Positions 13,132 to 33,844 of a DNA stretch of 33,844 bases are shown here, in pieces. The notes below the pieces were generated by a model. That model worked only from the letters and a program-made list of their open reading frames with translations, did not search any database and was not told the DNA's origin. Source of the stretch: Hyphococcus sp. (GTDB lineage Bacteria; Pseudomonadota; Alphaproteobacteria; Caulobacterales; Parvularculaceae). Each line of letters starts with the position of its first letter. Position 1 is the stretch's first letter. The stretch spans positions 1 to 33,844 of the forward strand of contig BQJH01000001.1 in the NCBI GenBank assembly GCA_021604605.1, written 5' to 3'. Position numbers and translations under genes: made by a program.

Positions 13132-13153
13132 AAAAGGCCGGGTTGCCCCGGCC
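13130..13153 (-). terminator. Rho-independent terminator of the VPLPA-CTERM gene (possibly bidirectional)
   Basis: Stem GGCCGGG/CCCGGCC (13136-13142 / 13147-13153); loop reads GCAA on the minus strand, followed by T6 on the minus strand. Confidence 0.8.
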
Positions 13154-13179
13154 CTTCAAACTTGAATATTGTGCGATTG

Positions 13180-13866
13180 TTACGCTATGCGTTTTTGCTT
13201 GCGTGATGCGAAGCCAAGTCCCGCCATACCTGAAAGCAGAAGATAAAGGGCGCCTGGCAGCGGCACTTCCGGGGTCAACAGGTCTTGAGTGCGGCGAGCC
13301 GCGAAAACATCGAATGAGACCGGCAAATATTGACCGGACATTGCCATGGCCCACAAATTATTGGCTGCAGCGAGAACATCTGCGGAAATAAGTTCGAATA
13401 CACCGTCAGACAGATCGAATGATGAGGCGCCGTCCTCAACGATTTCCCACATGATCGCCTGCATAGCGGCGGCTGTTGTTGAGTTTTGCAGACCTGTCGT
13501 ATCCGTCATGAAGTTCCCATAAATGATGCCGATTTTGTTCTGATCCTCGGCATCCGGGAAATAATCGGTTCCTGCGACCCGCGTATGTTCGCGCGGCAAG
13601 CTCAAAAACTCATTGATCTGCAGGCAAAATGTCAGGAAATCGGTCCAGCCGTCTTCATTTGAGCCATATTGGAGGCTGAAAACACCGGCGCCGATATTCC
13701 GTGTGATGCCATTGATGTCTATCGTGATGGTCCGGCTAAGGCCTGTGGCGAAGACAGAACTGCCATTATCGGGGTTGTCCCGGACGGTAATTGGCGCGGC
13801 GTTAGCGATGGCCGGTAAAGCCAGAGCCATAGCAATGCCGGCAGCAAGTGTTGCAAAACGAGACAT
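13180..13866 (-). CDS. VPLPA-CTERM (PEP-CTERM-like) sorting-domain surface protein with candidate thioester-type domain
   Basis: Signal peptide ending 'ANA', C-terminal 'EVPLPGALYLLLSGMAGLGFASRKQKR' (motif + TM helix + basic tail); single Cys in 'FCLQ', plus 'MQAIMW' and 'TQDLL'. Confidence 0.9.
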   Translation of the reverse strand: MSRFATLAAGIAMALALPAIANAAPITVRDNPDNGSSVFATGLSRTITIDINGITRNIGAGVFSLQYGSNEDGWTDFLTFCLQINEFLSLPREHTRVAGTDYFPDAEDQNKIGIIYGNFMTDTTGLQNSTTAAAMQAIMWEIVEDGASSFDLSDGVFELISADVLAAANNLWAMAMSGQYLPVSFDVFAARRTQDLLTPEVPLPGALYLLLSGMAGLGFASRKQKRIA

Positions 13867-13996
13867 AATTCCCTCTTCAGTCGTTAAAAATCTATTACTG
13901 AAGGAGACTATTCAAATTCTGCGCCGCAAAAGCGGGTTTGACCCAGATGCAGGGAGCGGTTAATCCCTCGCGTCTTCTCGACACTTGGAAACCTAG

Positions 13997-21560: not shown

Positions 21561-22391
21561 TTAGTAGTATTGATTGGGCATCAAGGCGCTTGGCGACTTG
21601 TTGAGGACGGTCCCGATCACATTGGTTTTGCCGAGGATACGTCTTGCTTCCTTTAATTCTGGCACCCGGGTCTGACCGCTGGCGGCGATCAAAAGGACGC
21701 AATCCACTTTTGGCAGGAATGCAATTGTATCGTCACAACCGAGTATTGGCGACATATCAAAAATCACCACGCGAGATTGATAATCGGTGGTTGCCGTCTG
21801 GATCAGCCTGTCAGCATGGCCGGAGGTTAAAAACTCAGCGCCTTGGCGCGTGACCCGCTCATTTGGCATCACCAGGAGATTGGGCACGCCCATCCGAACC
21901 GTGACGTCATCTAGGTTTTTCTTGCTTTCAAAATAATCAAGAACGGAAGGAAATTCTGACATGCCCAGATACCGGGCGATGCTTGGCCGATAAAAATCAA
22001 GATCCGCCAGCACTGGATTGATCCCCGCTTTGGAGCTCATGGCGATGGCGAGATTAATCGCGGTTACTGTTTTACCCGCGCCGGAGCCCGGCGAAACAAC
22101 AGCAAGTGTCTTCCATCCAGACTTTTCCATTTTTTGCAGGACACGCGTCCGCAAAACTCTGTAAGCGTTTAAAACAGGATCTTGCTCGTTAGAAATAATC
22201 CTGTGTTCGCCAAAATTTTCAAAGTTACATTCAATGAGAGGAAACCGCTCCGACGCCGCATTGAGTGACTGATCAGATTGCTGGACGACTTTGGGTGCGG
22301 CTTTGCGTAACGCCGGATGCGTCGTCGCCGTTTTGGCGTCGCCGTTATTTCCAGTGCGTGCGCGTGTTACCGCTTGCCTGATCCGATCCAT
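21561..22391 (-). CDS. CpsD/CapB family bacterial tyrosine (BY) kinase for polysaccharide export
   Basis: 'AYRVLRT', Walker A 'SPGSGAGKT', Walker A' 'LADLDFYRP', Walker B 'VIFDMSP', 'GTVLNK', C-terminal YY. Confidence 0.9.
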   Translation of the reverse strand: MDRIRQAVTRARTGNNGDAKTATTHPALRKAAPKVVQQSDQSLNAASERFPLIECNFENFGEHRIISNEQDPVLNAYRVLRTRVLQKMEKSGWKTLAVVSPGSGAGKTVTAINLAIAMSSKAGINPVLADLDFYRPSIARYLGMSEFPSVLDYFESKKNLDDVTVRMGVPNLLVMPNERVTRQGAEFLTSGHADRLIQTATTDYQSRVVIFDMSPILGCDDTIAFLPKVDCVLLIAASGQTRVPELKEARRILGKTNVIGTVLNKSPSALMPNQYY

Positions 22392-22419
22392 TTATAAAAA
22401 CCTCAGTACTATTTTAAAC

Positions 22420-24036
22420 TCACACAGGGTCCGGTACCGGCCCGCTGGAGTGACCGCGTTTACCAAAACGCATTCTTCTTGATTTTTTCTTATTCGGCCC
22501 CTGAATGTAGGGAATAACGGCAATGGGATGCTCTTCAGTGATATTGGAGATATGCGTCCGGCCGCGCACTGTTGAGAAAACTAACTCCGCCGCGAAGGCC
22601 ACTGCGGCGCCTGCGCCAAGGGCGGCAAATATTGCCAGAACGCTGAGTTTACCACGATCCGGGCTGGTTGGTTCTTCAGGGCGCAAGGCGGGCTCCAGAA
22701 TAGAGAATTTTTCAGCCTGCTGGTTTTCTTCAAGGTTTTCAGCAAGCTGGGCCGCCTGTTGTTTTGACCTGATCGCCTGATACTCGGCGAATAGATTATC
22801 ATAATCGCGGGTCAGCGCGGCGAGGTCGCGTTCAACGGCGGGGGTTTTGCCAATACGTTCTTCATAATTCTTGATTTGCAGCTTCAGCTTTTCAGTATCG
22901 CGGTTGAGCATGCGAATTCGGTTGTCGATAACCGCAAGACGCCCTTCTATCTGAACACCGGCAATATCAGTCGAACCCTGACGGCTTTCATTCGCAATTT
23001 TGTCGCTCAGTGCTGTTCGTGCAATTTCAACGTCTTGTTCTGCTTTGGTGATTGCTTCCGGGTCAACCGGATCAAGGCGCTCCGCTGCTGTGAGGGCAAT
23101 TTCGGCTTGCCTCAGACCGCTGCGCAGGCGCTGGATTTCAGCGCTTGGCGCCATTTGCTGTTTAATGGCTCTGATCTCGTCCCGTTTTGCGACGACTTCA
23201 GGATATCCATCGCGATATGTTGCGCGCAACCTTGCGAGTTCAGACTCTAAGCGTCGCAGCTCCTGTGACAGACCATCTTCTGCATTCCCGCCAGCGACAA
23301 GTTGTGTTTCCAGAAAACGCTTTTCTTCTTCAAGCGTATTGATGGATTGGCTGGCGGAGTTGAGTTCTCGCGTTGTACGCTCGAGCATATCAAGATGCAT
23401 GTTCAGGTGTTCGGGTAGGGCATCTGAATTGGCGACTTTAAAATCTGAGATGCGCGTTTCGATGTCAGCAACCAGGGTTCTTAGTTTGGCGGCTTCCTGC
23501 TCAAAAAACTCAGTCGTGTTCGAAGCGCCAGCTGTCCGTGTGCGAACGTCTTCGCTGAGAAAGAGCGTAATGAATTCATTTGCAACAAGATAGGCTTTTG
23601 ATGGGTCCTCATCGCTGTAAGCAACGGTGAAAGCGATCGTACCGTCCTTGGGGGATCGTCTGTTGCCCGCGATTGTGATCAACGACACATTCAGGTTCTG
23701 GCGCATTATTGATACGCGCTCACTCTCCGACAAGCGGCTTGATGACGAGAAGACGGAATACTTATCGGCGACCTGCAAAAGACGATTGTGGGTCATAACC
23801 CGCTGGCGGATCGTCTGGATGCGTTCCTGAGCGTAAGCGTTGACCGTAGAACGAATAAGGTCCGTTGGAATCTGCTGGGATTCTACGAGGATTGTTCCTT
23901 TGGCCTCATATTTCGCTGGCAGCATCATCACGATGCCTAAGCCGATAGGCGCTATCAAGATGACCGGAATGATGAAATACAAAATCCGGCGCTGTAGAAT
24001 GATTAAAACATCTTCTAGTGAAAATTCATCACCCAT
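22420..24036 (-). CDS. Polysaccharide chain-length determinant / co-polymerase (GumC/Wzc N-terminal part, exosortase-system type)
   Basis: Two TM segments flanking a long coiled coil; 'ILVESQQIP', 'LTRDY', 'EKFSILEPALRPEEPTSPDR'. SD AGGAAG before ATG 24036. Confidence 0.9.
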   Translation of the reverse strand: MGDEFSLEDVLIILQRRILYFIIPVILIAPIGLGIVMMLPAKYEAKGTILVESQQIPTDLIRSTVNAYAQERIQTIRQRVMTHNRLLQVADKYSVFSSSSRLSESERVSIMRQNLNVSLITIAGNRRSPKDGTIAFTVAYSDEDPSKAYLVANEFITLFLSEDVRTRTAGASNTTEFFEQEAAKLRTLVADIETRISDFKVANSDALPEHLNMHLDMLERTTRELNSASQSINTLEEEKRFLETQLVAGGNAEDGLSQELRRLESELARLRATYRDGYPEVVAKRDEIRAIKQQMAPSAEIQRLRSGLRQAEIALTAAERLDPVDPEAITKAEQDVEIARTALSDKIANESRQGSTDIAGVQIEGRLAVIDNRIRMLNRDTEKLKLQIKNYEERIGKTPAVERDLAALTRDYDNLFAEYQAIRSKQQAAQLAENLEENQQAEKFSILEPALRPEEPTSPDRGKLSVLAIFAALGAGAAVAFAAELVFSTVRGRTHISNITEEHPIAVIPYIQGPNKKKSRRMRFGKRGHSSGPVPDPV

Positions 24037-24127
24037 CGTATTTCTTCCTGCGCCGTCCAGGCGTTTGTTATTCAACTACTTAGGCGCTCTTATCCGCCTT
24101 TGGAGCGCTCTATTGCAAGCCTTCAAA

Positions 24128-24143
24128 TGCAAGCCTTGAGCCG
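24128..24143 (-). promoter_or_regulatory. Putative sigma54 (-24/-12) promoter of the chain-length/kinase operon
   Basis: Minus strand reads CGGCTCAAGGCTTGCA: GG-N10-GC with TTGCA, about 90 nt upstream of ATG 24036. Confidence 0.6.
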
Positions 24144-24493
24144 GATTTCGCCTTGCTCAAGAGTGCGTCTTAACCAAATAAGATTAAGTAAACCCTTTGC
24201 ACGGTCTGAACGCGTTTTTTTAGTCTTTTCGCGAGTGCAGCATCAAGGCCTGTTCCTTCAAATTAGCCTCATGACCCAACATTTGTGCGGAAATATGGCG
24301 CGTACAGGGTCAAATTAGCCGGACATGGTGCTCATGGTCTTATTTATTAAAGATATTACAAATAGTTAGATGCATTTTTCGCGATTATATTAACACAAAA
24401 AGCAGTGTAAAAATTTCTCTCAGCCGGAAATGTGGGGCCGTTATTGCCTTTAGAAGGGGCGGCCTTGGTGAGAATGGTAAACAGACGCTACAA

Positions 24494-24510
24494 CTGGCCC
24501 ATGCCTTGCT
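24494..24510 (+). promoter_or_regulatory. Putative sigma54 (-24/-12) promoter of the glycosyltransferase/TPR/ATPase operon
   Basis: CTGGCCCATGCCTTGCT: TGGC-N7-TTGCT with exact GG-N10-GC spacing, about 100 nt before ATG 24612. Confidence 0.72.
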
Positions 24511-24611
24511 CATCATAATGCTGATAAAGGGGCCCAAAACGATCACGATGCTTTTCGTGTCAATCCGGAACGGCGGGCCTTGAATTACGGAAGACGGCAA
24601 GCGCCCACAGG

Positions 24612-25862
24612 ATGCAGAAATTAATGATTGAAGCAAAAGCCAGTGAAAATTTTACCCCGGCTCCTGATGACGGGGCGGCCCAGGACCGCCAACACGGCCG
24701 ATCGGTGAGCGCGGCGTCATTTTCTGCACGTGATGATTTTGATCGGGATGTCTGGTGCTTGATGGGACTGCCGGTCGATGCGGCGGATATTAATCGTGCG
24801 GTGGCTGAAATTGACGCATCTGTGCGGGATCAGAAAAAGCTTTCCTTTGTGACGCCGAATGTGAACTGGATGGTCAGCGCTTTGCGTGATCCAGAGGTCC
24901 GCCAGGAAATACTCGACGCCGATATGAGCTTTGTGGATGGGGCCCCGTTGGTCATGATGGCCAAAATGCTCGGCGTACCCGTTCGTTCGCGTGTAGCCGG
25001 GTCCGATATTTTTGAGGCGCTGCGTCGCCGGCCCGCCTTTGCCGGGCGCCCGTTACGGGTGTTTTTCTTTGGTGGGCGTGATGGGGCGGCAGAAAAAGCT
25101 GTGGCCGCGCTTGAGCAGGAACATGGCGGGGTTACTGCGGCTGGCTATCATAATCCGGGCTTTGGAGATGTCGCCAGCATGAGCACGCCGGAGATCATTT
25201 CAAAGATTAACGGGGCGAAACCGGATTTTGTTCTGGTCGCTCTTGGCGCCCGTAAAGGCCAAGCCTGGATTGACCAGAATAAAGAGCGCCTTGACGCGCC
25301 CGTGACCGCGCATTTAGGGGCTGTTATCGATTTTGCCGCCGGGGCTATCCAGCGGGCGCCGACATGGGTCCAAAAGGCCGGTTTTGAATGGGCGTGGCGC
25401 ATCAAGGAAGAGCCAAGCCTTTGGAAGCGGTACCTGAAGGATGGCGTCAGTCTGGCTGGCGCGCTTGTGAGCCGATTGGCGCCGCAGTTGATCGCTAGGA
25501 CAGGACGAGCATCGGGGCGTGAGGCTGTGGTCAATTCCATTAACAACGCCAGCGAAACCTTCATCGAATTATCCGGTGATTTGACGCGAGTGTCACTTTC
25601 TACTGTGCGCCCGGTTTTGCGCATGGCTGCAGAGCGTAAGTTAGATGTGGTGCTGGATTTATCGAATGTTGAGTATTTTGACCGAGCATTCCTTGGTCTC
25701 GTTTTGATGTTGGAAAAACATGTCGCCAGAAGCGGGCGAACGCTTTACGTAAACGGAGCCAATGCTGGGCAAAAAGCTGTTTTTCGAGCAAATGCCATGG
25801 GGTATCCCTCTTATGAGGGCATTACAGAAGATGAGCAGGATCTTAATACCGCCGCAATATAA
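24612..25862 (+). CDS. WecB/TagA/CpsF family glycosyltransferase fused to a C-terminal STAS domain
   Basis: 'FVTPNV', 'VDGAP', 'RVAGSD', 'VALGARKG', 'GAVIDF.AG...RAP.W....GFEWAWR..EEP.LWKRY'; from about aa 317 'IELSGDL...VVLDLSNVEYFD..FLG.V' is STAS-like. Start may be 24612 or 24624. Confidence 0.88.
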   Translation: MQKLMIEAKASENFTPAPDDGAAQDRQHGRSVSAASFSARDDFDRDVWCLMGLPVDAADINRAVAEIDASVRDQKKLSFVTPNVNWMVSALRDPEVRQEILDADMSFVDGAPLVMMAKMLGVPVRSRVAGSDIFEALRRRPAFAGRPLRVFFFGGRDGAAEKAVAALEQEHGGVTAAGYHNPGFGDVASMSTPEIISKINGAKPDFVLVALGARKGQAWIDQNKERLDAPVTAHLGAVIDFAAGAIQRAPTWVQKAGFEWAWRIKEEPSLWKRYLKDGVSLAGALVSRLAPQLIARTGRASGREAVVNSINNASETFIELSGDLTRVSLSTVRPVLRMAAERKLDVVLDLSNVEYFDRAFLGLVLMLEKHVARSGRTLYVNGANAGQKAVFRANAMGYPSYEGITEDEQDLNTAAI

Positions 25863-25907
25863 CCGAATGAACTGAATGACTATCGTTGTTGGAATAGGGT
25901 GAATTAC

Positions 25908-28355
25908 ATGAATAACCGATCGAATTTTTCTAAACTGACTGTTTCCGAGAAGGCGTGTCGCCCTAAAGCTCGCCGCAGAACCGGACGGTTATTCATGTTT
26001 GCAGCATTGGCGGCGGTCACGACTGCCTGCGCATCTCCGGAACAAAAGCTCGAACGCTATTATGAAAGTGGCCAGGAGTTTTTGGAAAAGAACGATCTTG
26101 GCAAAGCTAATATCCAATTCCGAAACGCTCTGAAGATTGACGAAGCGCATGTGCCGTCTTTGCTCGGCTTGGCTGTCATTGCGGAAGAGAAAAACGATCT
26201 GAAAGCGATGTTCGGCCTTTACCAGGGGATCGCCCGTCTCGATCCTGATAATTTGAAGGCGCACATTCAGCTTGGCAAATTATACCTGATCGGCAGTGAC
26301 GAGACCACTGCAATGGAAGAGGCTGATAAGGCGCTGACATTGGCCCCGGATAATCTGGACGCAATGTCTTTAAAAGCTGGTGTCTTGATGCGCATCGGCG
26401 ATTCTGTTCAGGCAACTGAATTGGCGCGCAAGGTTGTCGCTGTTGATCGTGCGAACCCTGAAGCCACTGTCGTTCTCGCAACAGATTTGGGTATTAAGAA
26501 TGACTTTGAAGGCGCTTTGGCTGAAATTGATAGTGCCCTTGCCATCGATCCAAAGCTAGCTGTTTTGCAGCTGTTGCGGATTCGTATTTTGGGTCAGCTC
26601 AACCGAACAGACGATATTGTCGCAAGCTACAAAAACCTTGTGGATCTTTTTCCTGAAGAGGTTGCTTATCGACGCGCCCTGGCTTCTGCTTACATTCTTG
26701 AGGGTGACCTCGATAACGCCCTTTTGCAATTGGAAGGCATGGTGGAGCTCCAGCCTGATAATCTTGACACGAAGTTAGACATCGTACGGATTGTCAAATC
26801 TAAAGACGGTGACGAAGCAGCAGAAAAACGATTGCGTGAATTTGCTGATGCTGAGAGTGACAATTTTGATCTAAAATTCGCTTTATCTGATTTTATGCGA
26901 GAGCAAAAAGCCTACACGAATGCGCTGGCGGTCGTTGAGCCCTTAATAAGATCGGAAGATCGAACCGTTGCCATGAAGGCGCTGAATAAAACAGCCGCGA
27001 TCCACATGATTAATGAACAGCGGGAACTGGCTGAACCGCTTGTCGATCAAATTCTTACAGAAGACGCGAACAATACGCAGGCGCTTTTGAAACGTGCTGG
27101 GCTTCAAATAGATGATGGGGAACTGGACGCCGCCATCGCAAATTTGCGCACGGCTGTGAATAACGAACCGGACCTGGCCGAAGCGATGGTCTTGATGAGC
27201 ACGGCTTTTGAGCGTCAGGGGAATATTCAATTTGCGAGAGCTGAACTTGCCAAAGCGTTTGATGTGAGTGAGCAAAGCGTTCGTATAGGTAGGGCTTATT
27301 CTTCCTTCCTGCTGCGCCATAATAATGTGGCGAGAGCAGAAGAAGTTCTCGAACAGGTTTTGGCCAAAAACCCACGCCACCTGGACACGTTGAAAAGACT
27401 GGCGTCTATCCGTTTACAGCAACAAGACTGGAGCGGGGCGGAAGAAATTGCTGAACTGATTGAAGATATCGGCGCCAATGGAGACGATGAAGCAGTGCGT
27501 GATATTCGTACAGTCGCGTACAGCGGCCTCGGCGAACATGATCGCATCATTGAGCTTTTGAACGATGACCGGCAAGCTGGTCCATTGGCGAGCCGCCCAC
27601 TGGCGACGTTGGTTGGCGCTTATGTGAATTCAAACCGGACCGCAGAAGCAAAAACACTTCTTGAAAACGTAATTGCATCTGATCAGGAAAATTATCCTGC
27701 CCGTATTCTTCTTGCACAAGTTGTCAGTAGCACTGGCGACCAAGCAGGTGCGGAAGATATCTTGCTGGAGGCAACTAAAGCTGACCCAACAAGAGCAACC
27801 GCTTATGAAATTCTTTATCGATACTATCTTGCGAACGGGAAAAGAGACAGCGCGGAAAGCTTAATCGATGAAGGGCTTTCTAATACGCCTGATAGTGATG
27901 CGCTGCAGTTTTATAAGGCTGATGTGTTGTTGAGTTCTGGCGCCCGCGAAGAAGCGCTCGAAATTTACGACGGACTGATCCAGCGGCGCCCGCAAGACAG
28001 GATTATCGCCAATAATTTTGTCAGCCTGATTGGCGAGCTGCGGGATGATCAGGCCAGTCTTGATCGGGCGTTGGAAGTGGCGCAGACTCTAAAAGATGAA
28101 ACGAACCCGGTTGTCATGGATACTGTCGGCTGGGCTTATTACCGTGCAGGACAGCAGGACAAAGCACTTGAATACCTGACCAAAGCAGCGGAAGGCGCGC
28201 CTGAACATCCGGAAATTCTTTATCATCTGGGGATGGCGCAATTTGCAGTAGGCGGGCAGGAAGACTGGCGCGCAACGTTGAATAAAGCCCTTGAAAAAGG
28301 CGGTGAGAATTTCCGCTACGCCCCAAGCATCCAGGCTGTTCTTGATCGCCAATAA
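25908..28355 (+). CDS. Long TPR-repeat lipoprotein (PrsT-like, exosortase/EPS-associated)
   Basis: Lipobox 'VTTAC', then 'A.IQFRNALKID', many TPR units and C-terminal 'DTVGWAYY...PEILYHLGMA'. Start uncertain (25899, 25908 or 25995). Confidence 0.87.
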   Translation: MNNRSNFSKLTVSEKACRPKARRRTGRLFMFAALAAVTTACASPEQKLERYYESGQEFLEKNDLGKANIQFRNALKIDEAHVPSLLGLAVIAEEKNDLKAMFGLYQGIARLDPDNLKAHIQLGKLYLIGSDETTAMEEADKALTLAPDNLDAMSLKAGVLMRIGDSVQATELARKVVAVDRANPEATVVLATDLGIKNDFEGALAEIDSALAIDPKLAVLQLLRIRILGQLNRTDDIVASYKNLVDLFPEEVAYRRALASAYILEGDLDNALLQLEGMVELQPDNLDTKLDIVRIVKSKDGDEAAEKRLREFADAESDNFDLKFALSDFMREQKAYTNALAVVEPLIRSEDRTVAMKALNKTAAIHMINEQRELAEPLVDQILTEDANNTQALLKRAGLQIDDGELDAAIANLRTAVNNEPDLAEAMVLMSTAFERQGNIQFARAELAKAFDVSEQSVRIGRAYSSFLLRHNNVARAEEVLEQVLAKNPRHLDTLKRLASIRLQQQDWSGAEEIAELIEDIGANGDDEAVRDIRTVAYSGLGEHDRIIELLNDDRQAGPLASRPLATLVGAYVNSNRTAEAKTLLENVIASDQENYPARILLAQVVSSTGDQAGAEDILLEATKADPTRATAYEILYRYYLANGKRDSAESLIDEGLSNTPDSDALQFYKADVLLSSGAREEALEIYDGLIQRRPQDRIIANNFVSLIGELRDDQASLDRALEVAQTLKDETNPVVMDTVGWAYYRAGQQDKALEYLTKAAEGAPEHPEILYHLGMAQFAVGGQEDWRATLNKALEKGGENFRYAPSIQAVLDRQ

Positions 28356-28417
28356 GGCTACTTAGTGAAGTGACGCCCCTTTTCGCGGGGAACTGAAATC
28401 GGTTAGGCACGACATCA

Positions 28418-30547
28418 ATGTACGAACAGTTCTTTGGTTTAAGCGAAAAGCCATTCTCCATTCAGCCTGACCCGTCCTTTTTATATTGGGGACGTACGCA
28501 CAGGCTTGCTTATGCGATGCTGGAATATGGTGTTCTCAATCACGCCGGTATTTCCGTGATCACTGGCGAGGTTGGTTGTGGGAAGACAACACTAATTCAT
28601 CGTCTTCTCGATCAACTATCGGACACCCACTCTGTTGCGCTTATTTCAAATATTCAGGAAGGCCGCGGCGATCTGTTAAGCTGGGTGCTGATGGGCTTTG
28701 GCGAACCATTTGCGGGGAAGACGCATGTAGAGTTGTTCTCCCAGCTTCAGAATTTTTTCATCAGCGAATATTCCAAAGGACGGCGCGTTGTTCTGATTAT
28801 TGACGAGGCGCAAAACCTTTCGATCGATATGCTGGAAGAGTTACGCCTTCTTTCAAATATCAATGCCGGCAAGGACCAATTGCTGCAATTGATTCTAGTT
28901 GGTCAGCCGCAGTTAAAAGGGCATTTGAATAAACCAGAACTTCTCCAGTTGGCGCAGCGGGTTGGGTCTGACTTTCATTTGACGCCGCTCAATAAAGAAG
29001 AAGTGCACGCCTATATTGATACGCGGCTGGCAATTGCGGGTTGTAAACGCCGTGTGTTTTCTGATCGTGCGATTGATCTGATTGCAGAGCAGTCTCGCGG
29101 CGTACCACGGGTTATCAATATCGTTGCCGATACGGCGCTTGTTTATGCGTTTTCTGCTGAAGAGCTGGTTGTTGGCGTCGAGACGATCAGAAACGTCATT
29201 CGGGATAAAACCGAGTTTGGCGTTTTTGGTATTGCCTCCGATGAAGATGCGGCGCCGCCGCTGAAGGCAGAAGGTGATGGCGGGATCGATTCATTTGCTG
29301 ACGGGGCCAGTAAATCCGAGGCTATCATCCGAGACGAATTTGACCGGGACGAGTCTGATCGGGGTGGTGATGAACCCGAAGATTTAACGCCGCCGCGCGA
29401 TCCCGCGCCTTTTGTGAACCCATCGCCCGAACCTACACCTGCTCGTGTGATGCCGGTGGCGGATATAAAAACACAAATTCAAAGCAAGCCTGCCGCAATC
29501 CCGGCGGCTCAATATGAGCCTGCGCCCTCGCGCCAGGAAGTGCGAGAAGAATCTGCGATTACAGGCGTTGTTGTCGTTTCCGCCCACAGAAAAATTTCAC
29601 CTGAAGCAGCTATTCGCTCAGCGGGTGACGGTCGCGCCATCGTTTTTGTTGCGATCGGCGCTGCGCCGGAAGCTGTGGCGATTGCCAAAAAAGCAGGCGC
29701 CATTGTTGTGGAAGATGATGGCCACACACTGAACACGGGTGGCCGGGCGCGCAATGCTGGTTATCGCCAGCTCAAGAAAATCGCGCCTCATGTTAAATAT
29801 GTTCAGTTCATTGATGCGGAATACGCCATCGCGCCTGACTGGATCGGCGCGGGTGAAAAATTTATGGCTCGCCGTCCGGAAGTCTCGGTCGTTGAAGGGT
29901 TTTTAAAAACCCATGACGGGTCGGACATTCAACTCGCTACTCTGCGTGATGAAAAGCGCATCCAGGATGAGGGCGAGATACAATGTGCAAATTGCGGCAC
30001 GGCTCTTGTGCGCACAGAGAACTTTGAAGCGATTGGCGGTTTTCGCGGTGACCTTACAGCAGCGGAAACTGAAGATTTGTGCATTCGGTTGCGTCGCCGA
30101 GGGGCGCGTATCTGGCGCTCTGACGCGGTCATGGCAATTTGCCGTCCAAGCCTGAAAGTGCGGCGCAATTGGTGGCGCGATCATGTGAAGCGTGGGTTTA
30201 AAAACGCTTATTCCATGTCGCTTCACGGCGGCCCGCCAGAGCGGCTTGGTGTCTATGATACGATGATGGCTATTTTCTGGGGCTTTCTTTTTCCTGTCGG
30301 AATGATCTGCGCTGCGATTGTGGCTGGCCTGACAGCAGGTGTTTTGGACATGCGGGTTTCCCCTTTAATTCTGGCGGCGGGTATTATCGCTGTTGGCGTT
30401 CTGGTCTTTGCTGCCTTGGTTGGTGTGTCGGTTCTGCGCCGGGGCATTTTCAGGCCATCTTCATGGGCAAGAGCCTTTGGCGCCGTCTTTGGGCGCATTC
30501 CAGAATTTGCCGGGGCGAGTAAAGTGTGGCTCAGCCGCAAAGCGTGA
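28418..30547 (+). CDS. ExeA-like AAA ATPase (PEP-CTERM/EPS-associated type) fused to a degenerate GT2-like domain and C-terminal TM helices
   Basis: 'MYEQFFGLSEKPFSIQPDP', Walker A GEVGCGKT (aa 50-57), Walker B 'LIIDEAQ', 'LVGQPQL', 'SRGVPRVIN'; acidic/Pro-rich linker; from aa 381 a GT2-like region ('ARNAG', 'YVQFIDAE', 'IGGF', 'LCIRLR'). Confidence 0.85.
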   Translation: MYEQFFGLSEKPFSIQPDPSFLYWGRTHRLAYAMLEYGVLNHAGISVITGEVGCGKTTLIHRLLDQLSDTHSVALISNIQEGRGDLLSWVLMGFGEPFAGKTHVELFSQLQNFFISEYSKGRRVVLIIDEAQNLSIDMLEELRLLSNINAGKDQLLQLILVGQPQLKGHLNKPELLQLAQRVGSDFHLTPLNKEEVHAYIDTRLAIAGCKRRVFSDRAIDLIAEQSRGVPRVINIVADTALVYAFSAEELVVGVETIRNVIRDKTEFGVFGIASDEDAAPPLKAEGDGGIDSFADGASKSEAIIRDEFDRDESDRGGDEPEDLTPPRDPAPFVNPSPEPTPARVMPVADIKTQIQSKPAAIPAAQYEPAPSRQEVREESAITGVVVVSAHRKISPEAAIRSAGDGRAIVFVAIGAAPEAVAIAKKAGAIVVEDDGHTLNTGGRARNAGYRQLKKIAPHVKYVQFIDAEYAIAPDWIGAGEKFMARRPEVSVVEGFLKTHDGSDIQLATLRDEKRIQDEGEIQCANCGTALVRTENFEAIGGFRGDLTAAETEDLCIRLRRRGARIWRSDAVMAICRPSLKVRRNWWRDHVKRGFKNAYSMSLHGGPPERLGVYDTMMAIFWGFLFPVGMICAAIVAGLTAGVLDMRVSPLILAAGIIAVGVLVFAALVGVSVLRRGIFRPSSWARAFGAVFGRIPEFAGASKVWLSRKA

Positions 30548-30561
30548 GAGGGCGTTCCGCC

Positions 30562-31812
30562 ATGTCACCCGCCGGACTTCAGGATGGTCAACAAAAAATG
30601 CGCGTTGCTTATTTTGTAAACCAATACCCAGGCATCTCTCATAGTTTTGTACGGCGTGAAATTCAGGCCCTTGAGCGCCAAAGCGTTGATGTTGTCCGAT
30701 ATGCTATCCGTCCGTCTAAAGATGATATCATTTCAGATGAGGATCGACTGGAATTTGAGAGAACCCGTCATATTGTCAAAGTAGGAAAGCTCTCGCTGCT
30801 CGCGACGATGTCGAAACAAATATTGACTGATCCTGTTCGGTCGGCTCAAGCTTTTCTAAAGGCTATAGGGCTGGGCTGGCGGTCCGAGGCTGGGCTGATA
30901 CGCCACCTAATGTATTTTGGTGAAGCCCTCGTGCTGGCCAGTTGGCTAAAGCAAGATGGCATACGCCATGTTCATGCGCATTTTGGCACTAACACAACCA
31001 CAATCGCCTTGTTAGCTGCGCCAATGGGGGATGCGACATTCAGTTTTACGGCGCACGGGCCAGAAGAATTTGAAAAAGCCGATCTAATTTCCTTGCGAGA
31101 AAAAATTGAAACAGCAGATTTTACTGTGGCGATTTCCAAGTTCGGCGCCAGTCAATTAAAAAAACTTTCGTCACCTGCTGTCTGGGATCGCATCAAGATT
31201 GTCCACTGCGGGATTGAGCCGGAATTTTATGAAACGCCCGGCGCGCCACACATAGACAAGCCTGTGTTCGTTTGTGTTGGACGTTTATGTGCGGAAAAAG
31301 GACAGATTGATCTTGTTAACGCCGCCTCCATTGTCGCGAAAAAATACCCCGCCCTTGAGGTCAGGCTGATTGGCGATGGCCCGATGCGTGGCGAGATAGA
31401 AAAATCTATCGAGCAAAATAACCTGGAAAGTAATGTTTCGCTTTTGGGTTGGAAAACCCCCACACAAGTGCGCAATGAAATCGTCAATGCGCGCGCGTTT
31501 GTTCTGCCAAGTTACGCAGAAGGGTTGCCCGTCTCCATCATGGAAGCGTTGTCATTGCGTCGCCCGGTGATCTCAACTTTTGTCGCTGGCATTCCAGAAT
31601 TAATTGAGACAGGCAAATGCGGTTGGTTAACCCCGGCGGGTGATGTTGAGGCGATTGCCAGCGCCATGCTTGAGGCGCTTGGGTGTGATGGCGACATGCT
31701 CTCACGGATGGGGGAGGACGGGTTGCAGCGGGTAAAATCCGCTCATGACATTGATCAAGAGGCAAGCCGATTAATTGGCCACTTCCAGCAAGCCATGGAG
31801 TCGGCCAAATGA
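30562..31812 (+). CDS. Family 4 glycosyltransferase (WcaL-like)
   Basis: 'AYFVNQYP..SHSFV.RE', 'HVHAHFG', 'VGRL..EKG', EX7E motif 'EGLPVSIME'. SD GAGAGGG before ATG 30562; 30598 is an alternative. Confidence 0.92.
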   Translation: MSPAGLQDGQQKMRVAYFVNQYPGISHSFVRREIQALERQSVDVVRYAIRPSKDDIISDEDRLEFERTRHIVKVGKLSLLATMSKQILTDPVRSAQAFLKAIGLGWRSEAGLIRHLMYFGEALVLASWLKQDGIRHVHAHFGTNTTTIALLAAPMGDATFSFTAHGPEEFEKADLISLREKIETADFTVAISKFGASQLKKLSSPAVWDRIKIVHCGIEPEFYETPGAPHIDKPVFVCVGRLCAEKGQIDLVNAASIVAKKYPALEVRLIGDGPMRGEIEKSIEQNNLESNVSLLGWKTPTQVRNEIVNARAFVLPSYAEGLPVSIMEALSLRRPVISTFVAGIPELIETGKCGWLTPAGDVEAIASAMLEALGCDGDMLSRMGEDGLQRVKSAHDIDQEASRLIGHFQQAMESAK

Positions 31813-32996
31813 CATTCATGCTCTCCATGTTTGTTTGGGGGGTAGCTCTACTCATCAGCATTCCGGTGCTGGTCTTTTGTTTGGAAGTTCTTTCGTCGTT
31901 TTTCCCTGCAAAAGAACGCCGCGAAGGCGTAGCGCCTGCTTCAGTTGCGATCATCGTACCGGCGCATAATGAAGGCGAGCATATAAAGAACACACTGGCT
32001 GACATTAAAGCCCAATTGCGCGCTTGTGATCGACTGATCGTTGTCGCCGATAATTGCTCTGACAATACGTTTGAAATAGCAGTGGCCTGCGGTGCAGAAG
32101 TGTTTGTCCGCACTGACCCGGACAGGCGCGGTAAAGGCTATGCGCTACAGTTTGCAATTGACCAGTTGCAAGCGTCGCCGCCTGAATGTGTCGTTTTTCT
32201 AGATGCGGACTGTCGGGTGGAAGAGGGTGTACTTTTGAAAATTGCGGCCATTGCCCATAGTGAAAAACGCCCCGCTCAGGCGATGTATCTGATGACCCCG
32301 CCGGAAGAGTTTCATCCGCGAACAAATGTATCGGTTTTTGCCTGGATGATGATGAACAAAGTGCGCATGACCGGTCTGCAACGAATGGCGGGGGTAACTC
32401 GCTTTACGGGCGCGGGACTGGCTGCGCCTTGGTCAGTGGTCTCAAAACTTCCCTTCGCGACGGGAGACATCACTGAAGACCTCGTGTTGACGTTTAAAAT
32501 GACGGAGCTGGGCGCCGCGCCGTTGCTTGTTTCTAGCGCTGTTGTGACTAGTGAGTTTCCCGCCGCTGATAAGGCGCGCGTGACCCAGCGCGCCCGGTGG
32601 GAACATGGTTCTCTTGGCGTAATCTTTCATCACGGGTTGCCGGCGATGTGGCGCAGTCTCAAGCAATCAAACCTCAAGCTGCTTGCTCTTTCTTTTGATG
32701 CAGTTGTTCCGCCGATCATATTGTTGGGCGCACTTTTGTTGGTGGTTGCCGGGCTATGTTTGCTTTTTTCCATGGCGGTTGGCGTTGCGCCATTTGTCTG
32801 GGTCGCAGGTGCGGCAGCTATATATATTGCCTCAATCTTGGTCGGGTGGCTGGCCTACGGGCGAGATGTCTTGCCGCCGTCTAAGTTAGGTTCCCTAGGG
32901 CCATTTCTGTTTGATAAACTCAAGATCTATGGCGATGAGGGGCGCGCCTCGACTAAAGTCTGGACACGCACCGACCGTGACGATGGTGCGCCGTAA
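31809..32996 (+). CDS. Membrane-bound family 2 glycosyltransferase
   Basis: 'VPAHNE', 'ADNCSD', 'GKG.AL', DxD 'DAD', 'TED', Q-R-x-R-W 'QRARW', with flanking TM helices. Confidence 0.92.
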   Translation: MTFMLSMFVWGVALLISIPVLVFCLEVLSSFFPAKERREGVAPASVAIIVPAHNEGEHIKNTLADIKAQLRACDRLIVVADNCSDNTFEIAVACGAEVFVRTDPDRRGKGYALQFAIDQLQASPPECVVFLDADCRVEEGVLLKIAAIAHSEKRPAQAMYLMTPPEEFHPRTNVSVFAWMMMNKVRMTGLQRMAGVTRFTGAGLAAPWSVVSKLPFATGDITEDLVLTFKMTELGAAPLLVSSAVVTSEFPAADKARVTQRARWEHGSLGVIFHHGLPAMWRSLKQSNLKLLALSFDAVVPPIILLGALLLVVAGLCLLFSMAVGVAPFVWVAGAAAIYIASILVGWLAYGRDVLPPSKLGSLGPFLFDKLKIYGDEGRASTKVWTRTDRDDGAP

Positions 32997-33145: not shown

Positions 33146-33329
33146 GCCTGACGAGGCCTGCAATATAAAATATTGGTAATTGCTCACGATTTGAAAAATT
33201 TTATCGACCGTTGAAAGCGAATGTTTGTCACAACATTTTATTTCTTTGCCTGTTGCGCAAATGCATCTTTTGCAGCCAACATTTTTGTAAACGCCGTTGA
33301 ACAGCGGCAATGTACATGATGAGTATTGT

Positions 33330-33844
33330 ATGAGTATCGAACGTCGGCTGGCAAAAACAAATGATTTTTCTCAACTTAATAATTTGGAAGATTTATTAGC
33401 ACTGGGCCGGTCTGGTATTCTGGCGTCGTCGAAAGTCAAAGGCCGCCGCGCTCTAAAGCGCGCTGCGCGCAGTAAAGTTGCAAAAGCAGGCCTAATCGCG
33501 CCCTTATTAGCGGCTGAAGGGTGCCTGAGCCTTGGCAAGAAAGATGTGCCGCTTGCGGAAGATACTGGCGCCAGTGGCGGCGGCGCAGGCGGTTCTAATA
33601 ACGGCTCTACAGGCTCACCCGGTATTAACGCAGGCGGCGGCGGGGGTAAGTCAGCGCCTGTTGATCTGGAAGCGATGGACGATCACTTCCACACGGAAGC
33701 AGGCGCGCCGGTTAATATCGCGGCAAGCCAATTGCAAGCTAATGATATACACAGTAATACTGGACCGCTCGAATTGGTCCGAGTTTTTGACGCGGTGAAT
33801 GGTACAGTGTTTTTTGACGGCGCAATAGTTCAATTCATTCCTGA
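33330..33844 (+). CDS. 5' part of a cadherin-like / Ig-like repeat surface protein (partial, runs off the window; absent from the ORF track)
   Basis: Manual translation from ATG 33330 is open to the window end: MSIERRLAK...LIAPLLAAEGC...Gly/Ser linker...EAMDDHFHTEAGAPVNIAASQLQANDIHSNTGPLELVRVFDAVNGTVFFDGAIVQFIP. The last segment fits the A.DD...L.AND...NGTV...F.P pattern of bacterial cadherin-like/Ig repeats. In-frame TAA at 33288-33290 bounds the start. Confidence 0.82.
   Translation, partial: MSIERRLAKTNDFSQLNNLEDLLALGRSGILASSKVKGRRALKRAARSKVAKAGLIAPLLAAEGCLSLGKKDVPLAEDTGASGGGAGGSNNGSTGSPGINAGGGGGKSAPVDLEAMDDHFHTEAGAPVNIAASQLQANDIHSNTGPLELVRVFDAVNGTVFFDGAIVQFIP

Follow-up and report, generated by a model that had tools for sequence, protein, structure and literature searches.

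A compact protein with a predicted thioester-domain fold on an exosortase sorting tail, a candidate short covalent tether of a diderm bacterium

The window, that is, the whole stretch of 33,844 nucleotides that was analysed, carries on its minus strand a solitary gene with nadE on one side (convergent) and gltX on the other (divergent), preceded by an RBS-like GAGGG. The features of the gene and of its surroundings are the following:

13180..13866, minus strand: coding sequence of 228 aa, comprising a signal peptide, a predicted thioester-domain (TED)-fold domain and an exosortase sorting tail (ORF translation).
13798..13866, minus strand: likely Sec signal peptide, residues 1-23, ending in A-N-A (by inspection, not by a predictor).
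13270..13797, minus strand: predicted TED-fold domain, residues 24-199, a beta-barrel and a helical bundle, class I-like and free of a beta-sandwich insert (from the model).
13624..13626, minus strand: Cys81 in F-C-L-Q, predicted thioester Cys (motif and conservation).
13447..13461, minus strand: Gln136-x-x-x-Trp140 on the central helix, the equivalent of the TQxxhW motif without its Thr.
13285..13287, minus strand: Gln194 in T-Q-D-L-L, predicted to be the Gln of the thioester; it lies where the last strand begins.
13183..13266, minus strand: VPLPG, hydrophobic helix and basic tail (RKQKR), an exosortase signal of the VPLPA/PEP-CTERM type (profile matches below cut-off).
13132..13157, minus strand: hairpin with T tract resembling an intrinsic terminator, directly after the gene.
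13912..13926, minus strand: sigma-54-like promoter candidate (GG-N10-GA, with a variant -12 element), 60 bases before the start codon, its position conserved in close relatives.
21561..32996, no strand assigned: exopolysaccharide (EPS) locus like the exosortase-associated ones, 7.7 kb from the gene (NCBIfam matches).

Checking of the translation placed Cys81, in TFCLQ, as the sole Cys of the entire 228-aa protein, Gln136 and Trp140 within AAAMQAIMWE, and Gln194 8 residues ahead of the first Pro of the sorting motif, whose VPLP begins at residue 201; positions and codons are those given in the preliminary description. We take the ORF to be a real gene because of its homologues, the RBS-like sequence, the terminator-like hairpin and the mostly synonymous changes between strains. 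A protein search returned 64 proteins at E≤0.001, query included, and 591 cluster representatives matched at the same threshold; the closest named homologues are from Parvularculaceae, and the homologues are called hypothetical or VPLPA-CTERM proteins, with one 'opacity protein-like surface antigen'. An independent run yielded a strain variant (one contig, depth 2) with 25 changed codons, 21 of them synonymous, and C81, Q136, W140 and Q194 are unchanged among the 27 in-gene differences listed (5 further table rows are unlisted). Near-identical pieces of the gene are carried by an algae metagenome, and a biofilm metagenome run may be the origin of the sequence; run X2, which matches the flanking genes only, was left out of the habitat reading. 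No RNA run is among the listed runs that carry the gene, a result that speaks neither for nor against its expression. Within the likely signal peptide, A21 and A23 are invariant in 64 close homologues, and residues 1-21 have pLDDT <50 in the AlphaFold model.

The AlphaFold2 model, based on the 64 close homologues, has a mean pLDDT of 84.6 and block means of 91-98 for residues 31-200. When it was used as a query in a structural search of 48,161 PDB representatives, eight chains were found at Z≥8, all of them TED-containing (BaTIE 11.8, SaTIE 11.5, EfmTIE86 10.8, Cpa 10.8, CpTIE 10.2, SfbI 9.6, FNE 9.2 and PnTIE 8.4), and the next chain had Z 5.0; the eight superpose at rmsd 3.1-4.2 Å over 144-157 residues. 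Foldseek agreed, the 13 best listed rows being TEDs (best E 3.9e-4) with TM-scores of 0.36-0.46 by the full-length query and 10-15% identity to solved TEDs, and re-examination of its top 1000 gave Z 8.9-11.8 for TEDs and nothing else above 2.6. For a Rhodobacteraceae homologue (25% identity) modelled from its own 12-sequence alignment, TEDs were again the first structural matches, the best of its models having pLDDT 77 and the other four <40. The ESM Atlas model of the protein aligned with actinomycete TED clusters at TM 0.69-0.70, and a beta-barrel with a three-helix bundle is present in the predicted models. The TED-like fold that had been proposed from the sequence is therefore supported by the structural comparison.

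In the sequence libraries, neither Pfam nor NCBIfam gave the query a match above cut-off. Pfam TED (PF08341) scored 13.3 bits (E 0.12, residues 80-153) under a gathering cut-off of 22, Pfam PEP-CTERM 19.2 bits against 20.7, and the best NCBIfam match, TIGR03370 (VPLPA-CTERM), 20.8 bits, or 23.5 in another scoring, against 25.35; the PEP-CTERM family models of NCBIfam matched nothing of the query outside its C-terminal region. Of the 143 homologues examined, 86 show a PEP-CTERM match and 24 a TED match at E≤0.01 in Pfam (best TED E 2.8e-5), and no TED or TQXA model is found among the NCBIfam families matched by them at E≤0.001. SaTIE-TED (6fx6) was the only phmmer match among PDB sequences at E≤10 (E 1.4), in a register that lays FCLQ on FCIE and AAMQAIMWE on IATQMLIWE; a PDB profile search returned no TED with one alignment and, with a second, SaTIE-TED at E 0.19 only, ranked under three unrelated matches. 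We class the protein as a predicted TED-fold protein on an exosortase tail, and as neither a TIE protein nor a formal PF08341 member.

The motif order expected from Gram-positive TEDs holds for the Cys, the helix Gln and Trp and the late Gln, and does not hold for the helix Thr, in whose place the protein has M135. F80-C81-L82-Q83, which follows strand 73-79, has the form [YFL]-C-hydrophobic-hydrophilic (in the family, F/Y/W-C-L/V/I-E/D/Q); Q136 and W140, on helix 129-145, align with the SaTIE-TED motif; and T193-Q194-D-L-L stands ahead of strand 196-199, with a polar, not hydrophobic, first position. Thr is found at the place of M135 in 7 of 235 homologues and Phe in 126 of 235, and no residue of TQxxhW is reported as fully conserved among TEDs (PMC4450167).

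With the class I TEDs compared, namely CpTIE-TED (5a0g), SfbI-TED (5a0l), PnTIE-TED (5a0n), the Cpa TEDs (2xi9, 4c0z) and FNE (5dcq), all under Pfam PF08341, the protein shares the predicted barrel and helical bundle (Z 8.4-10.8), the succession of [YF]C-hydrophobic-polar, helix QxxxW and late Gln on the last strand, and a short linker (residues 177-184) from the last helix to the final hairpin. It differs from them by its diderm host, by an exosortase tail instead of LPXTG, by the absence of stalk domains, by F/M in place of the TQ Thr, by a conserved WE-x3-D/E-x5-DL-x2-GxF insert, by a score below the Pfam cut-off and by a Cys-to-Gln span of 113 residues (also the family median) vs 129 in CpTIE, 152 in SfbI and 153 in PnTIE (PMC4450167). 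The class II TEDs BaTIE (6fwv), SaTIE-TED (6fx6) and EfmTIE86-TED (6fwy) gave the highest Z (10.8-11.8), share an extra N-terminal strand ahead of the first hairpin and include the sole PDB sequence match (6fx6); unlike the protein, they have a Cys-to-Gln span of 171-204 and the seven-stranded beta-sandwich insert reported to define the class (PMC6194298). Since the last helix (162-176) is linked to the final hairpin (185-189, 196-199) by only 8 residues (177-184), the class II beta-sandwich is absent from the model. A short helix (99-102), as expected for the alpha0 of class I, follows strand 92-98, and none was called in the model of the second homologue. The domain, about 175 residues long, or 177 when counted from the signal peptide to VPLPG, is by its model class I-like and compact. 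The insert, at 13396-13446 on the minus strand (residues 141-157), follows the QxxxW helix family-wide, with E141, D/E145, D/N151, L152, G155 and F157; E141 covaries with G155, and its acidic residues may, from their pattern, bind a metal ion.

The choice of C81 and Q194, not Q136, as the reactive pair had been made in the preliminary description, and it is indirectly supported by register, conservation and covariation, which agree. In the structural alignments the last paired residue of the model is 202, opposite CpTIE 275 and PnTIE 255; given ungapped last 8-9 residues, Q194 falls on Gln267 of CpTIE and Gln247 of PnTIE, and on the same condition it is offset by one residue with respect to Gln261 of SfbI and in another CpTIE chain (thioester Gln numbering according to PMC4450167). 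Q136 was considered as the thioester partner and rejected, its counterpart being the Gln of TQxxhW, which the bond does not require.

Regarding conservation, 242 proteins were examined, of which two failed the domain profile and five were dropped as duplicates; in the remaining 235, C81 is kept in 230/231 and Q194 in 233/233 rows with a residue. With 81 genes added from 80 genome loci, whose possible overlap with the 235 was left in place, the alignment has 316 homologues, many at about 30% identity, in which the conservation of C, QxxxW and Q that was to be looked for is evident (C81 310/312, Q136 313/315, W140 316/316 and Q194 312/314 rows with a residue). The searches are biased towards sequences with the Cys and QxxxW motifs; Q194 is in neither pattern of the genome-contig scan, and in the 81 it is retained in 79 by column and in 80 on inspection, one of the two apparent losses being an alignment slip (L082, which keeps SQNLV) and the other, L104, also lacking the Cys. 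In the 143-sequence alignment, with a mean column identity of 16%, C81, W140, Q194 and P204 are the sole invariant columns, and on these sequence comparisons the conservation of the motifs far exceeds chance. Two variants without Cys were observed: L104:5001-5588 (Actibacterium ureilyticum), in which both the Cys (to Ala) and the Gln are lost, and L027:588-1280, with Cys to Ser and the Gln retained; both have an intact frame and tail.

By mean-field DCA on 257 effective sequences, the pairs 86-190, 86-195, 86-192 and 83-190 rank 5, 7, 21 and 31 of 14,878, in the company of plausible helix-bundle contacts (112-139, 137-164, 134-167 and 138-172) among the top pairs. The direct 81-194 score is uninformative because both residues are nearly invariant; the covariation of residue 86 with 190, 192 and 195 suggests that the residues just after C81 adjoin the Q194 loop. 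The four pairs, in the same order, rank 6, 18, 15 and 21 in the divergent subset and are not seen when the close clade is analysed by itself (44 effective sequences), and in the 81 later sequences alone 86-195 ranks 3 and the other three fall to ranks 361-455.

Taken together, fold homology, conservation and covariation make it very probable that a Cys81-Gln194 thioester forms. In Gram-positive TEDs the Cys-Gln thioester is reported to form spontaneously and to be attacked by amines, which leaves an amide on the Gln (PMC4450167, PMC6194298), in a reaction described as reversible and pH-dependent (PMC13685950). It is quite unlikely, in our opinion, that the fold is TED-like without a stable thioester and that Cys and Gln serve instead as a catalytic nucleophile, as a metal or redox site or in non-covalent binding. 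The low identity to solved TEDs, the helix motif without Thr, the insert E141-x3-D/E145-x5-D151-L-x2-G155-x-F157, which could bind metal, and the persistence of the Cys-less L027 (Cys to Ser) and L104 (Cys to Ala) as open frames would be compatible with it; against it, the conserved residues are exactly those of TEDs at the same structural places, the lone Cys of an exported protein is unpaired, Cys and Gln are lost jointly in L104, and a 17-Da loss was reported for all 12 purified Gram-positive TEDs (PMC4450167). The idea that a Lys-poor domain guards against self-reaction was rejected, Lys amounting to 1.9% here and to 1.7% in 12 other CTERM proteins.

Concerning the other end of the protein, the exosortase route that had been assumed is supported by a complete tripartite C-terminal signal (motif, hydrophobic helix, basic tail) and by XrtD in the genome; the TIGR03370 score lies under its cut-off. 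XrtD scored 506.6 bits (cut-off 400), and its pairing with VPLPA is taken from the NCBIfam model names. The 3-Mb genome encodes three different exosortases (XrtD, XrtA and XrtE) and, by profile, only about six CTERM-tailed proteins, and it has one copy of the TED-fold domain. XrtD is present in 20 of the 23 genomes of the bacterial family that have the gene and in 66 of the 98 that do not, a co-occurrence for which no test is claimed because the genomes are kin; the three carriers with no detected XrtD are 75-91% complete.

The tail is also found in distant relatives, 77 of 81 of which end in a CTERM by profile and the remaining four by eye, with VPLPA, VPIPG, VPVPG/A and VPEPA/G as types. The protein contains neither isopeptide/ester stalk domains nor LPXTG, having the VPLPG tail instead, and the stalk-less format attributed to it is the rule in the family: 185 of the 228 homologues tallied have Q194 7-11 residues ahead of the motif's first Pro. 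In a weak test, no fused longer relatives (400-2000 aa) were found among 1546 candidates; P0184 (1730 aa), the lone long match among the 591 cluster representatives, was dropped because the motifs are missing.

Upstream of the gene, the pattern [TC]GGC-N7-TTG[AC], chosen after inspection of the sequences, is present in 20 of the 25 upstream regions, compared with a mean of 0.5 and a maximum of 4 after shuffling, and in 11 of the 20 regions that carry it, it stands 60-62 bases ahead of the start. The -12 element is GA, not GC, throughout the close clade, and a sister clade has the canonical TGGCAC-N5-TTGC. This sigma-54-like motif does not extend to the whole family: among 80 distant loci it was seen in 9, vs 2 on the reverse strand. 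The genome contains rpoN, and no PrsR-type activator was found over cut-off in the genome, which is 88.6% complete. In another VPLPA-CTERM gene of the genome, L006:946-1590, the longest start is preceded, at a distance of about 73 bases, by a sigma-54-type site of canonical form, TGGCAC-N5-TTGC. We also considered a heat-shock-sigma reading of the same bases, based on the consensus TTGAA of that sigma factor; no shared -10 element was seen. A sigma-54 promoter has been documented for pepA of Aquincola (PMC9850573).

The protein has relatives in the Alpha-, Beta- and Gammaproteobacteria as well as in MAGs of Acidobacteriota and Planctomycetota. The gene was found in 23 of 121 genomes of its bacterial family and in 4 of 401 genomes of a phylum-wide draw (own genome counted; 7 candidates scored per genome), and a plasmid collection gave no match for two queries. 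A genome-contig scan with a narrower alignment confirmed at least 420 relatives among at least 603 matches; the best 80 of these relatives are mostly from Rhodobacterales and Roseibium, and include Enterovibrio, Methylobacillus, Roseateles, a Vicinamibacterales MAG and a Phycisphaeraceae MAG. Linkage to an exosortase or EPS-export gene (within 5 kb) is seen in 14 of these best 80 loci, and the flank examined of the other 66 contains none; seven of the 14 are Roseibium/Labrenzia kin, and the linkage spans about eight separate lineages. In Roseibium album, the row consists of a TPR protein, a chain-length determinant, the TED-fold gene, an ATPase, a UDP-sugar dehydrogenase and an exosortase, and in a Methylophilaceae MAG the TED-fold gene lies inside an EPS-export operon with an exosortase. 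The position of xrtD about 11-13 kb from the gene in five genomes of the same genus was discounted as linkage because the block is conserved and consists of mostly unrelated genes. In L031 (G069:C71:9358-12843), from the same genus, the gene likewise lies between nadE and gltX and is broken, with the frame interrupted upstream of the Cys motif and F-C-L followed at once by a stop, which makes it either a decayed copy or an assembly error.

The TED residues, the predicted fold and the adjoining exosortase tail point to a likely very short covalent tether. We propose that Sec export would remove residues 1-23, and that folding would then bring C81 beside Q194, the thioester forming with release of ammonia, as fold homology, conservation and covariation suggest. 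An exosortase, most likely XrtD, would cut the VPLPG tail, and the new C-terminus would be either anchored or handed on to the envelope or the matrix; finally, the thioester would be attacked by an amine belonging to a matrix polymer, a neighbour protein or the substrate surface, with an amide on Q194 and a freed C81 as the outcome. With only some 8 residues between Q194 and the sorting motif, target and anchor would be joined covalently at near-zero length. By analogy with the known TEDs and on sequence and model, we consider it reasonably likely that the protein is a stalk-less TED-fold protein whose self-made Cys81-Gln194 thioester links the cell surface, covalently and over a very short distance, to an extracellular amine partner, its most likely role being to keep the exopolysaccharide matrix, neighbours or a surface on the cell. 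The layout would be that of a covalent staple, not of a projected adhesin, and suits fastening of the matrix to the cell.

Exosortase cargo is reported to keep EPS on the cell (PMC9850573, PMC12188702, PMC13751637), the retention phenotype of exosortase systems being described for Aquincola, Nostoc and Curvibacter, and the acceptor and the outer-membrane exit route of such cargo are described as not established (PMC12188702). The thioester might be spent already in the periplasm, the domain being held at the inner membrane until cut and stapling the envelope onto the meso-diaminopimelate amine of peptidoglycan or onto another envelope protein; this is unlikely, given that the patchy occurrence of the gene and its decay in relatives fit an accessory surface trait better, that EPS-locus links are found in about eight separate lineages and that exosortase cargo governs EPS retention in three organisms. 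We consider improbable, too, that a protein with a real thioester is released after cutting and acts from solution, covalently tagging or cross-linking matrix proteins, polyamines, phage or grazer surfaces. Exosortase targets are reported to be either attached or released (PMC12188702), the Cpa TED reacts with spermidine (PMC4450167), and a single-domain format fits a diffusible reagent; however, a free reagent with one site cannot connect two partners, a lipid anchor is added in analogous sorting systems, and the floc rescue by PepA has been read as favouring anchoring (bioRxiv 10.1101/2023.06.07.544157).

The anchored tether that we prefer resembles in its architecture the VPLPA-CTERM/PEP-CTERM cargo (TIGR03370 with XrtD TIGR04152; PepA of Aquincola and Zoogloea; the CrtB substrates of Nostoc), which likewise consists of a signal peptide, a small domain and a motif-helix-basic tail, with a sigma-54-like promoter and cognate exosortases in the genome; unlike that cargo, it would have a TED fold with a predicted reactive bond as its domain. 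TEDs outside Gram-positives are present in the ESM Atlas by automatic annotation only (with a T9SS tail in Ignavibacteriota, and in Bathyarchaeota); their predicted structures align at TM 0.68-0.72 by query, and they differ in being longer and multi-domain and in using other sorting routes. Pfam-level TED calls outside Gram-positives are thus already in databases. Bacterial alpha-2-macroglobulins are described as having Cys-Gln thioester chemistry in a diderm envelope, but they have an unrelated fold, very large size and activation by proteolysis. Their motif is short-range, of the CxxQ type. Complement-type thioester proteins and TEDs are reported to be unrelated (PMC6194298).

In the main texts of the open literature covered, a TED on an exosortase or PEP-CTERM protein was not found in print, though a supplement could list one, and among the papers listed for PEP-CTERM with thioester nothing was on topic by title or by the start of the abstract. 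The papers on PF08341, as far as covered, place TEDs in Firmicutes and Actinobacteria, and neither TEDs nor exosortases come up in the portion covered of a review on bacterial surfaces from 2026. More tentatively, the homologues could represent a widespread, unannotated minimal thioester family of double-ended staples for the covalent adhesion of diderm environmental bacteria, linking EPS matrix, neighbours or surfaces in marine biofilms and flocs. Each molecule would be attached through exosortase at one end and, some 8 residues from there, through its own thioester at the other, and would supply one of the chemical links that are still missing from the picture of how the matrix is fastened. 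If the tether reading is true, covalent adhesion would be extended to free-living diderm bacteria, and there would be a concrete chemistry for PEP-CTERM cargo, whose mechanism of holding EPS is described as open (PMC9850573, PMC12188702). At about 175 residues, and with a Cys-to-Gln span shorter than in any solved TED of the comparison, the domain could provide a compact scaffold for covalent protein tools; the natural Cys-less variants (L104 and L027) are ready-made negative controls, and cultured, non-pathogenic carriers exist, among them Hyphococcus luteus, Albibacillus kandeliae, Roseibium album and Methylobacillus.

The EPS locus of the window encodes a tyrosine autokinase, a chain-length determinant, a WecB/TagA protein, a PrsT-like TPR protein, an ATPase and glycosyltransferases, its best NCBIfam matches (TIGR03018, TIGR03007, TIGR02917 and TIGR03015) each being below cut-off. 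The WecB/TagA-family glycosyltransferase at 24612-25862 is fused to a C-terminal anti-sigma-antagonist (STAS-like) domain, and the 709-aa product of 28418-30547 combines a TIGR03015-like ATPase (residues 1-263), a Pro/Ala-rich linker and a glycosyltransferase-like C-terminal region. Directly after the locus, an ORF at 33297-33842 with a Gly-rich stretch and no NCBIfam match exits the end of the window, and possibly encodes the first part of a large surface protein.
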